Below, one piece after another: positions 30,772-36,977 of a stretch of 39,140 nucleotides of DNA. Source of the stretch: an uncultured Fidelibacterota bacterium (GTDB lineage: Bacteria > Fidelibacterota > Marinisomatia > Marinisomatales > UBA1611); NCBI GenBank assembly GCA_913040915.1, contig CAJWHW010000021.1:1-39140 (forward strand), given 5' to 3'. The notes under the pieces are model-generated. The model was given only the letters and a program-made list of their open reading frames with translations. It had not been told where the DNA came from and did no database searches. Each line of letters opens with the position of its first letter. Position 1 is the first letter of the stretch. Made by a program: the position numbers and the translations under genes.

Positions 30772-31580
30772 TGTTTCCAGTCTTATTTGAAATAGGTCCT
30801 ATAAAAATATACTCATATGGCTTCATGTTGGTAGTAGCATTTTATACATGTTATTTTCTATTACACCATGATTTGAAGCGTTTGGGCCACGATGATAAAT
30901 TAGCGTCAGATATGGTATTTTGGGCAGCTGTCGGTGGTATATTGGGATCTAAAATATATTATTTATTGGAAAACCTGGGCCAAGTAATCGAAGATCCTAT
31001 TGGGATGATATTTAGTGGTTCTGGGTTAGTTTTCCTTGGTGGTTTAATGGGTGGCACATTGGCTGTAACTATACTATTACGAAAAAATGGACTGCCTTGG
31101 TTGAAATTCGCGGATATTGTTGCACCACTTTTAATTTTAGGATATGGAATAGGTAGGATTGGTTGTTTTCTTGTGGGCGACGATTATGGAATTCCTAGTA
31201 ATTTACCTTGGGCAATAGCATTCCCCAATGGGCTTCCACCATCAACCTCCAGTGTTTTTGGATTGTATTATCCTTGGATAGATATTTCTGATTTTGAATC
31301 TGGTTTACTTAAAGTTCATCCTACACAGATATATGAATCTGTTACGTGTATTTCATTATTTTTCTTTCTCTGGTTCAAACGTTCTACTATAAAAGTAACA
31401 GGTAGTCTTTTCTTCCTTTATTTAATCTTGGCTGGAGTTGAAAGATTCGCAGTCGAGTTTATTCGAACGAATGAAAAATACTTATTCGATATCTTTTCAG
31501 GCTCCCAAATAATTTCAATAATTATGATTATTATAGGTTCTTATTTTCTGCTTTATCCTTTATCAGATATGGAGCAATAA
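30771..31580 (+). CDS. lgt: prolipoprotein diacylglyceryl transferase
   Basis: MFPVLF.IG...YSYG, GL.F.GG, GRIGCFLVGDDYG, HPTQIYE, RF.VEFIR; TAATG-coupled start at 30771. Confidence 0.95.
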   Translation: MFPVLFEIGPIKIYSYGFMLVVAFYTCYFLLHHDLKRLGHDDKLASDMVFWAAVGGILGSKIYYLLENLGQVIEDPIGMIFSGSGLVFLGGLMGGTLAVTILLRKNGLPWLKFADIVAPLLILGYGIGRIGCFLVGDDYGIPSNLPWAIAFPNGLPPSTSSVFGLYYPWIDISDFESGLLKVHPTQIYESVTCISLFFFLWFKRSTIKVTGSLFFLYLILAGVERFAVEFIRTNEKYLFDIFSGSQIISIIMIIIGSYFLLYPLSDMEQ

Positions 31581-31581
31581 C

Positions 31582-32409
31582 CTGCTTATTGTTTTTATAA
31601 TATTAATTTTATGTTCAACACCGACTTTTGGGCAGGTTAACCTTTATATCACCGAATTTCGGCCGTTCCCTGAAAAACTGAACCTTTTAGATTTAGAACC
31701 ATCCAAATTGAGTTGGTCAATTGCAAACCACTTTTTATTACTGGATGAAAAAAAAAGAGAATTGATAGCACTAGATCCATTTGGTGAAATGAATTTATCA
31801 AGCGGATTAGGGCAAAAGCGTTTTCATTTTGGCGATTTAGTTTGGATAGGTATGTCACCGCAGGGAATTAAAGTTGTAGATCGATTAGAAAATGAAATTA
31901 TTATTCTAGATTATCATTTAAATACCATACGTAATATTACATTGAATCAACGTATTTTCCCTGAAAACGTCGCTATAGACCCATGGGGAAGACTATTTCT
32001 TTATACTAGGACTTACAATTGTATCTATATTTTTGACAATGGAGAAATGTATCAGACACCATTTATAAATTTATCAAAGGAATTTTCACCAGCTTTTTGT
32101 ATGCAAAAGATGGAAATAAACCAGGATGGTGAGATTGCCATATTGGAATGCAATGGGAGTATTCATTTTTTTAATAGAAATGGACAAATAAAAATTTCAT
32201 TAACAGCACTGTTAGAAGATCCAACTTTTTTAATCCCTTTACGTGATGATTGGTTTATTTTTAATCAAAATGGAGTTGGTATTTCAATTCAAACACGGGA
32301 TCATGTAATAATACCAGTTGCAAGCCTTCCTATAGTAGATATGGTATCCTTAAATCGTTCCATTGCAGTTTTATCAAAGGATCATATACTAGTTCTTGAT
32401 GTCAAATAA
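31582..32409 (+). CDS. secreted beta-propeller (NHL/6-bladed-like) protein; probable CTG start
   Basis: Frame open from 31537, with signal peptide LLIVFIILILCSTPTFG-Q upstream of the track's TTG 31708; blade-like segments IKVVDRLENEIIILD, VAIDPWGRLFLY, MEINQDGEIAIL. Confidence 0.7.
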   Translation: MLIVFIILILCSTPTFGQVNLYITEFRPFPEKLNLLDLEPSKLSWSIANHFLLLDEKKRELIALDPFGEMNLSSGLGQKRFHFGDLVWIGMSPQGIKVVDRLENEIIILDYHLNTIRNITLNQRIFPENVAIDPWGRLFLYTRTYNCIYIFDNGEMYQTPFINLSKEFSPAFCMQKMEINQDGEIAILECNGSIHFFNRNGQIKISLTALLEDPTFLIPLRDDWFIFNQNGVGISIQTRDHVIIPVASLPIVDMVSLNRSIAVLSKDHILVLDVK

Positions 32410-35400
32410 AATTAGGCTGCTTTATGGTCTTTATTTATTATGTAATTGTGCAATTATCGCACAAGTATCTTCTACAGTAGATACTATTTTTCAGGTTGGG
32501 TTAGGAAATACGATTCAATTAAGTAATAGTTTTATACTAGAATCATCTGTTAAAGTAGATTATTTAGGTGAATCATTAACTATTGAATCGATTCAATCTA
32601 TTGAAGGAATAATAACACTTTCTGATTCCAAATATGATTTTCCCATTGTTGTCCACTACGATTATTTAAATAAAGGTTTACCAATTTCTGTTGGTCCAAA
32701 GTGGAAAACCTTACCTGCTCTTGGTACAAAAATATCTCAATTAAACCAAGAAATATCATCATATGCTAAACCTAAAAGTAATACCGAGTCCAATCTCTTT
32801 TCATCAGGGAATATCTATCGCCAATTAACTATTTCACCACTAGGAGGCTCTGATTTTACTGGCGGCCTTCAAATGCAGTTGAATGGGAAGTTGACAGAAA
32901 ATTTGATTGTCAGTGGTGTACTAACAGATCAGGAGTTAACAATACAACCTGAAGGTACTACAAGAGAATTGGAAGAAATAGACCTAGTTTATCTTAAAGT
33001 AACTCATCCTAATTATACAGTAGATGCAGGTGATATATTTTTTGAAAATAATTTAAATAAAAAACAAAAAATTGATAGAAAGTTGATAGGTTTAAAAAAT
33101 AGTTTTAATATAAATAACTGGACTGGTGCTGGAGTGTTTGCTAATTCAAAAGGGAATTTTAAATCCATGGAATTTAAAGGCAGGGATGCTGATCAAGGGC
33201 CGTATCAGTTAACTGGTAAAGACGGGAACAGGGACATTATAATTCTATCTGGTACTGAGAAAGTTTGGGTGAATGGTAAAAATTGTATAAGAGGTCAAAA
33301 TCAAGATTATATTATTGATTATTCATCAGGTGAAATTCAGTTTACACCTAAAACCTTAATCCATTCTGATTCTGATATATTTGTGGAATACCAATATTCC
33401 AATTTTGAATATCAAAAAGAATTTATTGGCGGATCCATGAAAAAGGTCTTTGCTCATAAAGGCTTATTTAGCTATGGATATTTTAGAGAATCTGATGAAT
33501 TCAATGGCATGAATTGGAGAGGTGATATAAAGGATTCGTTGAATGTATTAGATGCAGGAAAAATAAAGATAAGTACGGCAGTTTTAAATGATAAAGGTGA
33601 TTATATCAAAAAGAATAATATTTTTGAATATTATCCAGAAAATATATCATCTGATTCATTGAGATATACAGTAACCTTTGAGTATAATGAGAATGGAAAA
33701 TATGCTCGGAAAATTTCAAATAAAGGGCGAATCTATTATAAATATATTACCGGTGACATAAGTCAAGAAAGTGATCAGGATAGATACAGTCCATTTCGAC
33801 TAATTTATGCTCCACAAACACATAGTCTCGGATATTTTGGTGGAGAGTATAAAATAGGAAACAATTTGAAAATTTCTTCTAATTTGACCACTTCTATGGT
33901 TAATAGAAACAGTTACAACTTATCAGGGAATACTTCAAATGGCTCCGCATCTATGGTTGAGATTATTCTAGATTCATTAGAATTCAGTAGAGGTTTATTT
34001 TATCTTTCAATTTCCGATTGGACAAGAGGTTTGAATTATTATGCGCTTGGTCAGGAAAATGATGTACAGCAAAGAAGATTTTGGAACTTAGATTCTTCAT
34101 TGAATAATAATATTAAAGAATCAAAGGTGAATTCTACATTGATCATTCATGAATATGGCACCACTAATATTGAAATTGCCCAATTGAACCATCAAAATTT
34201 CACTCATTCCAGGTTCTTTTTTAATCAGGATATCACTCATTTAAAATTTACCAATACATACATAAATCATAGATCAATTCGAAAACCAAAAGGAATATTT
34301 AATCGATCTGATGGAAGATTTCAAATACATTTCAAGGAATTTTCACCATTTATAAAGGTATTATCAGAAACAGAATCAAATGTAGCTCGTTTTCGTAATG
34401 TGGGCAGTGGAATTCAATTCCAAAATTTGAAGACACATATCGAAACTGGAGTTGATTTGCGAAAAGATGAGACATTTAATGATTCAACGACTTGGGAATC
34501 TATTTCTGAAGATTTTATTGGATTTATTGATATGAAAGCACAGTTTCCATCAGGGTGGTCACAGAATATAATATATAAAAAACGGATTAAATCTTTTGAA
34601 TCTAGTTTACCATCCCTTGATTATTCTTTGGCAACACTAGCTTTTAGTTATAATCGTGGACTCCATCCACTTCAATGGGAACTCCAAATTAACAAAGAGG
34701 AATCCCTTTCTGAAGAAAGAGCTGTTGTTTATGATTCTGTAGGTACAGGTTTAGGACAGTATAGATATGATCCAGTTTTTAATACATATGTATCAGACCC
34801 CAATGGTGCCTTTATTGCACATTCCATTTCAACCGGAAAACGTGATCCAACATCGAACTTTGAAGGGTCACAGCGTTTTATGTTTGATTTTGGAAAAATC
34901 CCTGGTTTACCAAAACTTTTAATTCGAAGTCATAGTCGTCTAGATTATAGTGCACTTAAATCAGATATCAATAAAATATTAAGGCCTGAAATAACAGATT
35001 CGACAATTTCTCGTTCAAGATTAGAATCGAGACTAGAGATTATATATTCTGGGAAAAGAAGATTACTCAGTTGGATAGAAAATCAACATGAACTAAATGG
35101 TCTTGATCCTCGAGGAAATGATTTACATAAAACAAGTTCATTTGGTCTTGATATTGAACAATCTATCTCAAATATTTTGCAGGTTAAACTAAATACAAAG
35201 CATCGTACAAAAATAATTAAATCAACGGTTTCTGATTTGAGAAATCGAAAGATGGCTGGCTGGTGGAATGAAACCCGATTCCATGTATCGATAAATTCGT
35301 CATTTGATTTTGATATTGGTTTCTTGACAGGTTTTGATTCAGGTGAACAGCAAGAAAATTCTTTTACTGGTCATGCTCTTGGCTATTTAGTAAATGGTCG

Positions 35401-35653
35401 GTTTTTTTTCAAAAAAACTGGACGGTTGCAGACAAGTATGAGTTGGATAAATGCATTTGAAAAGAATTATGGATATAAGTTACCACCTGAAGCACTGAAT
35501 GGATATCCTCTTGGTAAAAGTTTTCGTTCCAATACACGCCTACAGTATTTCATTAACCGATCAATCTCAATGATTTTCACCTTAGATACAATAAATGATA
35601 TTCGTTACAAAAATTTTATCACATTTCAGGGAGAGATTCGTGCGCATTTTTAG
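32399..35653 (+). CDS. large putative outer-membrane beta-barrel protein (~1084 aa) with SprA-like internal modules
   Basis: Signal peptide; many amphipathic strands; C-terminal beta-signal FQGEIRAHF; segments GLQMQLNGKL...LTDQ...IQPEG and GTEKVWVNG...DYIIDYSSGEIQF. Confidence 0.75.
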   Translation: MSNKIRLLYGLYLLCNCAIIAQVSSTVDTIFQVGLGNTIQLSNSFILESSVKVDYLGESLTIESIQSIEGIITLSDSKYDFPIVVHYDYLNKGLPISVGPKWKTLPALGTKISQLNQEISSYAKPKSNTESNLFSSGNIYRQLTISPLGGSDFTGGLQMQLNGKLTENLIVSGVLTDQELTIQPEGTTRELEEIDLVYLKVTHPNYTVDAGDIFFENNLNKKQKIDRKLIGLKNSFNINNWTGAGVFANSKGNFKSMEFKGRDADQGPYQLTGKDGNRDIIILSGTEKVWVNGKNCIRGQNQDYIIDYSSGEIQFTPKTLIHSDSDIFVEYQYSNFEYQKEFIGGSMKKVFAHKGLFSYGYFRESDEFNGMNWRGDIKDSLNVLDAGKIKISTAVLNDKGDYIKKNNIFEYYPENISSDSLRYTVTFEYNENGKYARKISNKGRIYYKYITGDISQESDQDRYSPFRLIYAPQTHSLGYFGGEYKIGNNLKISSNLTTSMVNRNSYNLSGNTSNGSASMVEIILDSLEFSRGLFYLSISDWTRGLNYYALGQENDVQQRRFWNLDSSLNNNIKESKVNSTLIIHEYGTTNIEIAQLNHQNFTHSRFFFNQDITHLKFTNTYINHRSIRKPKGIFNRSDGRFQIHFKEFSPFIKVLSETESNVARFRNVGSGIQFQNLKTHIETGVDLRKDETFNDSTTWESISEDFIGFIDMKAQFPSGWSQNIIYKKRIKSFESSLPSLDYSLATLAFSYNRGLHPLQWELQINKEESLSEERAVVYDSVGTGLGQYRYDPVFNTYVSDPNGAFIAHSISTGKRDPTSNFEGSQRFMFDFGKIPGLPKLLIRSHSRLDYSALKSDINKILRPEITDSTISRSRLESRLEIIYSGKRRLLSWIENQHELNGLDPRGNDLHKTSSFGLDIEQSISNILQVKLNTKHRTKIIKSTVSDLRNRKMAGWWNETRFHVSINSSFDFDIGFLTGFDSGEQQENSFTGHALGYLVNGRFFFKKTGRLQTSMSWINAFEKNYGYKLPPEALNGYPLGKSFRSNTRLQYFINRSISMIFTLDTINDIRYKNFITFQGEIRAHF

Positions 35654-36977
35654 TAATTTAATTTATTTAGCTTTTGGGATCCTTATTGGGCAAGATCCCA
35701 TGATCAAAATTCCATCTATTGAATCAAGTGTTATTTTAGACTCTCTCTATAATAAAAAAGAATATGATTCAAACATAGCATTGGTTTATAACCTAAAAAG
35801 ATTTCAACTAAACCCTGACTATTCAATCTATTCTATTGTTGAAAATAGAAAATACATAGATTCATTAGTGATAGATGGTGTTATAAATATCCAAAATCCG
35901 ATTATGGATCGAATTATAGCTCCATTAAAATCTAACCCTATAAATAATGGATTTGAGAATATTAAGAAAAACTGGGTTCAACGTTATTACTTTTTTAGGC
36001 AAGAACCTTTAATTGAACTTGGTCTAATTAATGAAAGCCATTTAGGGGCTATTCTTCAATTTTCACCAGAATTTGAAAGTTATTTTTCTGGAATATTTGG
36101 ACTAAGTCAACAAGGAAAGAATTGGTATCTGAATGGAGAAATTGATCTTCATTTTGAAAATTTGATTCAAACGGCCGGTATTTTAGATTTATATTGGAAG
36201 CGAACTGATTCATTATCTCAGAGTATTCAATTTGAAATACTTGAGCCACATCCGTTCGGATGGGAATTAGGTACTCACATTCGATATCACCATGAAATTA
36301 TGAGTGGTTTGTATACAATTATTAAAACAGAATCAATGTTACGGCTATATTCCCCATGGGTAGGGCATTTAAATTTGGGTTTCATATCTGGAAGGACACA
36401 TCCCACAAAAATTGGCCAAATCAGCGGTTTTGAAAAGGTATGGTTTAAAGCTCTCTCAATTTCAAAGAATACAGATACAAGAAACCAACGTTATCTACCA
36501 ACTAAAGGGAAAAAAATCAATATTAGCATTGATGCAGGTCTTCAGAAAAAGACTGAATACATTGAAACAGAATTTGATATTCAGCAGTATTTTGAAATTT
36601 GGAAAAAATTTAATGTAATGTTGCGGTTGCAGGGGAAGGGGCTACATGATTTTAAAGTAATAATTCCTAAATCAAGGTATATGATCTATGGAGGTAGTGG
36701 TACTTTACGAGGGTTCAAAGAACAAAACTTTTCCGCACCACAATTTCAAGTGGGCACAATTGAACTAAATTATAAACCGGTTAATATGATACAAACAGGC
36801 ATTTTTATAGATTGTGGTACAGATAAATTGAACTTATTTAATAATAATAATGTTGGTTATGGTTTAGGCTTTACACAAGTATCAAATAAAACCATAATTA
36901 AAATTCAATATGCAATGGCAAAAGGCCAAAATTTCAGTGATGGAAAGCTACATATTAATTGGATTTCTCGTATATAA
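35640..36977 (+). CDS. Omp85 (BamA/TamA-like) outer membrane protein with reduced periplasmic region
   Basis: GTG start after GGAGAG; signal peptide; DTRN...PTKG, GG..TLRGF (loop-6 VRGF-like), VGYGLG, terminal strand KLHINWISRI. Confidence 0.8.
   Translation: MRIFSNLIYLAFGILIGQDPMIKIPSIESSVILDSLYNKKEYDSNIALVYNLKRFQLNPDYSIYSIVENRKYIDSLVIDGVINIQNPIMDRIIAPLKSNPINNGFENIKKNWVQRYYFFRQEPLIELGLINESHLGAILQFSPEFESYFSGIFGLSQQGKNWYLNGEIDLHFENLIQTAGILDLYWKRTDSLSQSIQFEILEPHPFGWELGTHIRYHHEIMSGLYTIIKTESMLRLYSPWVGHLNLGFISGRTHPTKIGQISGFEKVWFKALSISKNTDTRNQRYLPTKGKKINISIDAGLQKKTEYIETEFDIQQYFEIWKKFNVMLRLQGKGLHDFKVIIPKSRYMIYGGSGTLRGFKEQNFSAPQFQVGTIELNYKPVNMIQTGIFIDCGTDKLNLFNNNNVGYGLGFTQVSNKTIIKIQYAMAKGQNFSDGKLHINWISRI

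Follow-up and report, generated by a model that had tools for sequence, protein, structure and literature searches.

The window, as we call the whole stretch of 39,140 nucleotides analysed here (contig CAJWHW010000021.1 of assembly GCA_913040915.1, from an uncultured bacterium of the Fidelibacterota, or Marinimicrobia), carries a gene for a 1084-residue protein that, judged from its sequence, is a paralog of SprA, the giant barrel of the type IX translocon, and not SprA itself. The prediction for this protein is an outer-membrane barrel built from one chain, with about 38 strands, and its family is retained, almost without exception, together with a short Omp85 protein. We suggest, with confidence just short of even, that it is a second pore through which folded macromolecules, probably proteins, are exported, the Omp85 protein being its dedicated assembly factor and possibly a standing partner at the barrel wall.

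No description of this barrel family was found in the full-text literature, beyond the reach of which lie subscription papers and some supplements, and no SprA paralog is described in the papers found. Among the outer-membrane barrels identified, SprA itself has been described as the largest (PMC7463736), and a strand-counting preprint kept only counts of 8 to 26 (10.64898/2026.03.07.710327). New in the present analysis are a third related barrel family, a count-based test of co-retention and candidate locus tags in Flavobacterium johnsoniae.

Homology with SprA and with a third barrel family

Using HHalign, we compared a 150-row alignment of the barrel family with 20 SprA proteins (1973-2727 residues). 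Residues 280-366 of the barrel match SprA 649-735 (probability 96.7, E 3.4e-10), residues 36-88 match SprA 641-699 (E 9.6e-5), residues 146-262 match SprA 190-303 (E 1.3e-3) and residues 488-524 match SprA 783-820 (E 0.065), while a reversed SprA alignment, an alignment of Omp85 and a set of six SusC proteins, serving as controls, never went below E 0.31 (0.44 for SusC). The repeat copy at residues 36-88 aside, the SprA segments are colinear with the barrel, SprA having about 350 extra residues between strand 7 and the shared module that follows it. The first-pass annotation, made from the letters of the window without database searches, had likened this module to a segment of SprA, and the likeness is borne out by the profile match and by F. 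johnsoniae SprA, which reads GSVVV...DYSVDYQLGRV from about residue 699; the position of the module within SprA is inferred from the SprA sequence, HHalign and the comparison of the module folded alone. The early strands (2-9), colinear in both proteins, and the DYxIDYxxG module were thus both found, which places the barrel by descent in the SprA superfamily. Profiles were required to see the relation, as pairwise BLASTP against the N-terminal part of the SprA of the same genome gave only E 0.02. The family profile also matches, at positions 281-382, frames of about 2100-2400 residues in many genomes (best E 2.5e-9). The second large insert and the hairpin insert of the barrel show no HHalign match to SprA.

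The true SprA of this genome is split across contig ends, with a short overlapping peptide (G000, contigs C14:3-3287 and C25:28843-31953, both on the minus strand; loci L082 and L083). It scores 463 and 293 bits with the SprA/Sov families TIGR04189 and PF14349, and after it come two genes of PorV/PorQ-like type and others for type A C-terminal domain (CTD) proteins. By contrast, the window protein matches neither these two families nor any other in Pfam or NCBIfam at E <= 0.1. Since a separate true SprA is present in the same genome, the barrel is a relative of SprA but not SprA. It also differs from SprA/Sov (PDB 6H3I, 8GL6, 8GL8), likewise a very large single-chain barrel, in being half as long (1084 against about 2000-2700 residues), in lacking the insertion of about 350 residues before the module, in ending with Phe, in travelling with an Omp85 protein and not with PorV, and in being absent from many SprA-positive genomes.

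A third family of about 1030 residues was found through a weak match in genome G225 (locus L121:6134-15001, P0262 family), where a 1049-residue unnamed barrel lies beside a 1395-residue DUF11/SdrD_B/OmpA protein and a 527-residue DUF11 protein. Aligned from 42 of 109 matches, this family gives the longest continuous profile match to the barrel (residues 157-371, 206 columns, probability 97.9, E 3.8e-13; reversed control 0.31) with a further match at residues 470-627 (E 4.9e-4), and it matches SprA with E 1.7e-10. It differs from the barrel family in its neighbours, in an Ig-like N-terminal extension and in lacking the second insert, and it is likewise uncharacterised in the literature searched. 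Because it adjoins Ig-like DUF11/SdrD_B/OmpA proteins in the one locus read, both relatives of the barrel are tied to surface proteins. This third family may mark another undescribed export system. Another profile match, in locus L120, was set aside as it does not lie within a barrel gene.

Predicted structure

An AlphaFold2 model of residues 125-1084, made from a 64-row alignment and leaving the N-terminal module copy outside, has a predicted local distance difference test score (pLDDT) of 89.1 and a predicted template modelling score (pTM) of 0.81, the five models lying at pLDDT 85-89. It contains about 38 long barrel-type strands, the short strands of three inserts excluded, a count that is approximate as it was taken from the DSSP list and not from coordinates; hydrophobic alternation followed by eye in the 150-row alignment also gives 38 strands, and an automated alternation script returned 52 raw windows, non-barrel segments included. 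SprA, of the same size class, has 36 strands, a lumen of about 7 nm, an extracellular cap and a lateral opening shut by PorV or by a periplasmic Plug (PMC10994853, PMC7463736, PMC12398890). If both chain ends are periplasmic, strands 3, 7, 9, 13, 25, 27 and 35 would precede long outward-facing loops, and strand parity would place the internal module in an extracellular loop. The first-pass annotation had named more than 26 strands with lumenal domains as support for its claim: the predicted strand number agrees with this, but a lumenal position did not emerge for the module.

SprA ranks first in Foldseek (8gl6, E 7.5e-9, query template modelling score (TMq) 0.38). In VIA it scores Z 15.8 with a root mean square deviation (rmsd) of 9.2 over 658 residues, every other listed fold covering at most 356 residues; ushers, porins and SprA all fall within about 1.5 Z, so the Z score cannot decide between them and only SprA covers most of the chain. 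The outcomes that the first-pass annotation had named as refuting it (a 22-strand plugged TonB-dependent transporter, an LptD fold, no barrel) did not arise in the model. A TonB-dependent transporter, with 22 strands and a plug, was rejected on the absence of any plug or barrel family match, on the strand number and on the SusC control (E 0.44); that annotation too had recognised no TonB box or plug in the sequence. LptD, with 26 strands and a beta-taco, was rejected on the absence of a family match, on a Foldseek TMq of 0.14-0.15 and on the strand number, and a fimbrial usher, with 24 strands, a plug and chaperone-binding domains, on a match of about 345 of 960 residues and on barrel strands that reach the last residue. 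Single-sequence and 65-row profile searches of PDB gave nothing significant for the barrel; in the ESM Atlas the nearest clusters are without names, and a SprA cluster, at 0.87, is no more than a lead.

When the module is folded by itself (pLDDT 87), SprA 6h3i comes tenth among 48,161 chains (Z 7.5, with 88 residues aligned at 22% identity and rmsd 6.5, chain range 259-787). Such values are middling, and the docking domains of phage tail adaptors and tailspikes differ from SprA by no more than about 1.5 Z; Foldseek gave nothing at E <= 0.001 for the isolated module. Besides SprA, the nearest solved folds for window positions 33140-33433 are small beta-sandwiches that serve for docking in phage necks, tail-fibre adaptors and tailspikes (Z 7.5-8.9).

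Distribution and co-retention with an Omp85 protein

Searched against 1.84 billion representatives, the family profile retrieves 3025 proteins at E <= 0.001, of which 1962 reach E <= 1e-30. We then considered samples of two phyla. The barrel family is present in 122 of 151 genomes from the window's phylum (16 genomes with module-only or weak matches and 13 blanks being scored negative) and SprA in all 151, including 13 genomes of 0.8-1.1 Mb without the barrel family. Among 201 genomes of Bacteroidota, after five weak barrel matches were dropped, 138 encode the barrel and 161 encode SprA; all 138 carriers are SprA-positive and none of the 40 SprA-negative genomes has the barrel.

The short Omp85 subfamily follows the barrel closely. 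In Bacteroidota it is found in 136 of the 138 carriers and in none of the 63 non-carriers, including the 23 non-carriers that are SprA-positive, with a clean split between best E values (<= 1e-41 against > 1e-23), and the two genes are mostly unlinked there yet co-retained. In the window's phylum the count is 119/122 carriers and 0/29 non-carriers at E <= 1e-30, a cut that BamA too passes in some families. The Omp85 gene follows the barrel gene in 43 of 79 loci, the others being cut by contig ends or being mostly Ignavibacteria-type loci in which it is unlinked. Complex prediction for barrel residues 22-570 with the Omp85 protein gave a score of 0.38 (best of three controls 0.00), with runs agreeing in at least 40% of contacts and a partner pLDDT of at least 79. 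This is weak support. The mark is passed by 116 of 157 solved pairs and by 2 of 215 mismatched ones; at 0.60 or under it is passed by 18 of the solved pairs and both mismatches. The first-pass annotation had overlooked both this invariant partner and the propeller gene upstream of the barrel.

Candidate orthologs in Flavobacterium johnsoniae

By gene order alone, and not by sequence, the likely orthologs in F. johnsoniae are Fjoh_0539 for the barrel and Fjoh_0402 for the Omp85 protein. In six Flavobacteriaceae-like loci (L126-L131) the Omp85 partner lies between a fusA cluster and a SusC/SusD operon, with further lipoprotein genes, and in F. johnsoniae Fjoh_0402 precedes the Fjoh_0403-0405 Sus operon, which is among the most abundant outer-membrane components (PMC12611786). 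Fjoh_0402 (A5FMY6), named 'TamA', is a 566-residue protein with a signal peptidase I (SPI) signal and three POTRA domains; its gene is not flanked by tamB, and homologs occur in 11 of 30 species (PMC12045153).

The Flavobacterium-like barrel genes, whose products are likewise without a Pfam or NCBIfam match, are found near fbp and lysC and ahead of a small Lys/Ala-rich gene that is weakly TolA-like in three loci; fbp is Fjoh_0533 in published tables. Fjoh_0537 had first been suggested by counting genes from fbp in locus L134 and was replaced by Fjoh_0539 (A5FMK1), which is preferred because it is an uncharacterized SPI outer-membrane integral protein and is followed by Fjoh_0540, a 'colicin import membrane protein' that fits the TolA-like gene (PMC11885536). 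In the same source Fjoh_0539 is reduced to 0.32 in a lolA1 mutant and is not marked essential, and it has values in five of five replicates of two tables elsewhere (PMC12045153); neither the locus tag nor the accession appears in the searchable main texts of the literature. The question of function is directly testable, as the species that holds both likely orthologs is genetically tractable, a mutant of one of them exists and the barrel candidate has been detected in the outer-membrane proteome.

Proposed function and alternatives

As a second export pore, the half-length paralog would fold as a single-chain, loop-capped outer-membrane barrel with three extracellular inserts and no internal plug, and its 38 predicted strands imply a lumen at least as wide as the approximately 7 nm of SprA. 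So wide a barrel could not stand open and its own chain has no plug domain, so that partners or the outward inserts would have to close the pore. The Omp85 protein may fold the barrel, or stay at the barrel wall where PorV binds SprA, or both; the propeller, where present, could close or feed the periplasmic mouth; and the conserved loop at residues 177-195 together with the module might recognise cargo or a partner. The first-pass annotation had proposed a compact SprA-related wide-pore translocon, of which the kinship with SprA and the wide pore are upheld by the colinear profile homology, the predicted strands and the first rank of SprA in Foldseek, whereas a translocon function is one that we infer, in a genome that has a separate full SprA.

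Several observations weigh against an export pore related to SprA. No cargo was identified and there is no linked cargo gene among the 79 loci, and the C-terminal half of the barrel has no significant HHalign match to SprA (best E 0.028). The barrel family is missing from 23 of 161 SprA-positive genomes in Bacteroidota and from 29 of 151 in the window's phylum and is therefore dispensable for type IX secretion, and since the 40 SprA-negative genomes are probably mostly of one lineage, the nesting of the family within SprA carriers does not represent 40 independent events, and its Fisher p-value overstates the association. In VIA the Z scores of ushers (FimD 17.3, 345 residues aligned) and porins equal or exceed that of SprA, and the module fold is equally common to phage tail adaptor domains (Z 8-8.9). 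The pass in complex prediction may reflect pairing of Omp85 with the free sheet edge that a half barrel exposes, as in solved hybrid barrels of BAM (beta-barrel assembly machinery), and because a half barrel has such open edges we place little weight on it. Finally, fjoh_0402 can be deleted without effect on growth (PMC12045153).

Unlikely, yet the alternative that survives best, is that the Omp85 protein does the work, with the barrel as a standing partner to it in the biogenesis of the outer membrane, as a TamB-free counterpart of TAM (translocation and assembly module) that helps to insert or remodel particular large outer-membrane proteins or lipids and does not secrete cargo. The near-perfect co-retention, the overlap of the two genes, the position of the trio within an envelope operon with lgt and the weak pass in complex prediction would all be expected, and in Fjoh_0402, the likely partner, three POTRA domains are present while tamB is missing from the flanks of its gene (PMC12045153). 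Co-retention, however, would be equally expected if Omp85 were an assembly factor dedicated to the barrel, protein export is indicated by both of the barrel's known relatives, and no growth defect is reported for the tamA deletion in the available part of that paper. The partner resembles the TamA-TamB and BamA-BamB systems in being a short non-lipoprotein Omp85, and the propeller gene recalls BamB, which we take to be an analogy. It differs from these systems in having no tamB beside it, in being co-retained with a giant barrel and in being dispensable for viability (PMC12045153).

To an alternative type IX translocon, handling part of the CTD cargo with the same carriers (of PorV or PorP/SprF type), we give a low probability. 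Confinement of the family to SprA-positive genomes, the one genome (G335) in which the barrel adjoins sprA, and the PorV-like genes and type A CTD cargo of the window's own genome speak for it; but most of the length of SprA is lacking in the barrel, the type IX secretion literature examined, in its available portions, does not name the barrel as a component, and neither Fjoh_0539 nor its accession turns up in those supplements to the paper on the extended SprA translocon that could be searched. Ranked lower again is a wide loop-gated channel that imports or exports large non-protein molecules such as polysaccharide, as the RmlD-like and glycosyltransferase genes downstream in the operon, and the Omp85 partner ahead of a SusC/SusD operon in Flavobacterium-like genomes, might suggest. 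The RmlD-like and glycosyltransferase neighbours, however, are not retained outside the window's phylum, the family search shows no plug or TonB box for energised import, and there is no match to a polysaccharide-export family in Pfam or NCBIfam. That the strand number is a modelling overcount of an ordinary usher-like or tandem smaller barrel, as the usher rows at the top of VIA and a count made without coordinates might allow, is very improbable given the pTM of 0.81, the agreement of five models, usher matches that span only about 345 residues and homology with SprA by sequence (HHalign). Fimbrial ushers such as PapC and FimD are 24-strand barrels; they share with the barrel its large size and a beta-sandwich inserted in an early loop, and give the highest VIA Z, but show no sequence or family match to it, and no chaperone or pilin genes were seen in the loci read.

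For SprA to have a conserved relative, half as long and of greater predicted width, in most sampled genomes of two phyla would mean that giant barrels make up a superfamily and would bear on the origin of the type IX translocon; it would also offer a possible job for an orphan Omp85 protein, the F. johnsoniae 'TamA' (Fjoh_0402), which has no tamB alongside and no known role. More tentatively, no single-chain barrel identified so far in an outer membrane might be wider than this one, which might also be central to an ancient and undescribed export machine (barrel, private Omp85 and propeller) found across the Fibrobacteres-Chlorobi-Bacteroidetes (FCB) group. SprA, the DUF11/OmpA-cluster barrels and this barrel would then make up a superfamily of giant translocons, in which the compact form would be near the ancestor from which SprA grew by insertion. 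We regard this wider proposal as possible but doubtful.

Gene features and genomic context

The features of the barrel gene and of its two immediate neighbours are given in Table 1. The open reading frame, the module copies, the insert and the C-terminal Phe noted in the first-pass annotation are all real, and the internal motif GPYQL...IIILSGTEKVWVNG...RGQNQDYIIDYSSGEIQFTP...IFVEYQY begins at Q266, nucleotide 33194, where that annotation had placed it.

Table 1. Coordinates of the barrel gene, its features and its immediate neighbours in the window
Feature	Position	Strand	Basis or remark
NHL-type beta-propeller gene, secreted; upstream, overlaps barrel start	31567..32409	+	start codon uncertain
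Barrel gene	32399..35653	+	open reading frame 32396-35653; in-frame TTG 32396; ATG 32399
Likely Sec signal peptide, residues 1-21, mature Q22	32399..32461	+	read from sequence by eye
Degenerate N-terminal module copy, residues 36-90, ahead of strand 1	32504..32668	+	HHalign E 5e-9 against internal copy; E 9.6e-5 against SprA; missing from some members of about 1020-1050 residues
Predicted strands 1-7, residues 134-252	32798..33154	+	AlphaFold2 model; homology with SprA 190-303, E 1.3e-3
SprA-shared module, residues 253-334, small beta-sandwich after strand 7	33155..33400	+	model, HHalign, module-alone fold
Second large insert, residues 368-470, after strand 9	33500..33808	+	model; HHalign against SprA E 0.28
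YDSVG...NGAF hairpin insert, residues 778-805, between predicted strands 25 and 26	34730..34813	+	model
Last strand, Phe-terminated, beta-signal-like	35615..35650	+	model and homolog alignment
Short Omp85 (BamA/TamA-like) gene; downstream, overlaps barrel stop	35595..36977	+	Pfam Omp85 E 1.3e-12; synteny; co-occurrence

Counted from the ATG, the translation ends in ...QGEIRAHF, and the final Phe is present in 143 of 157 full-length homologs examined; homologs are annotated as hypothetical proteins of Marinimicrobia or Fidelibacterota. The hydrophobic stretch and the Q of the signal-peptide region are conserved in the family consensus. The N-terminal copy aligns with the internal module with an HHalign probability of 95.9. 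Several members (loci L014, L016, L017, L019, L029-L031, L033, L034 and L041) align only from about residue 94-98, most frames having about 1020-1060 residues, and the copy appears from these alignments to have been lost or to have diverged in some lineages. Within the module, 24 of 82 columns are conserved above 80%, and residues 177-195, inside the region of strands 1-7, are the most conserved loop (conservation 0.71). The YDSVG...NGAF insert is modelled as a short hairpin joining two elongated strands and weakly resembles the second insert (HHalign E 7e-5, 13 columns).

The genes of the window between 27422 and 39140 are, in order, lepA, a CAAX protease, a zinc-ribbon protein, lgt, the propeller, the barrel, Omp85, DUF4837, an RmlD-like gene and a glycosyltransferase, an order common, from lepA to the glycosyltransferase, to many Marinimicrobia loci with occasional losses. 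The propeller (E <= 1e-20) was detected in 90 genomes, all of them barrel carriers, and was undetected in the other 48. Its frame is open from 31537 and has a signal-peptide-like stretch that matches homologs, but ahead of 31708 it lacks ATG, GTG and TTG; ATA 31567 or CTG 31582 may be the start, or the sequence may contain an assembly error. A search for GldM in the window's own genome, which is 85% complete, gave no match, but the control was equally silent and the search is thus uninformative. In G335 (L114:6519-17864), alone among the genomes with listed positions, sprA lies immediately upstream of the barrel gene, in the same orientation and about 600 bases away. The barrel gene is broken into two frames, by a frameshift or an assembly error, in three assembled genomes (loci L010, L011 and L044).

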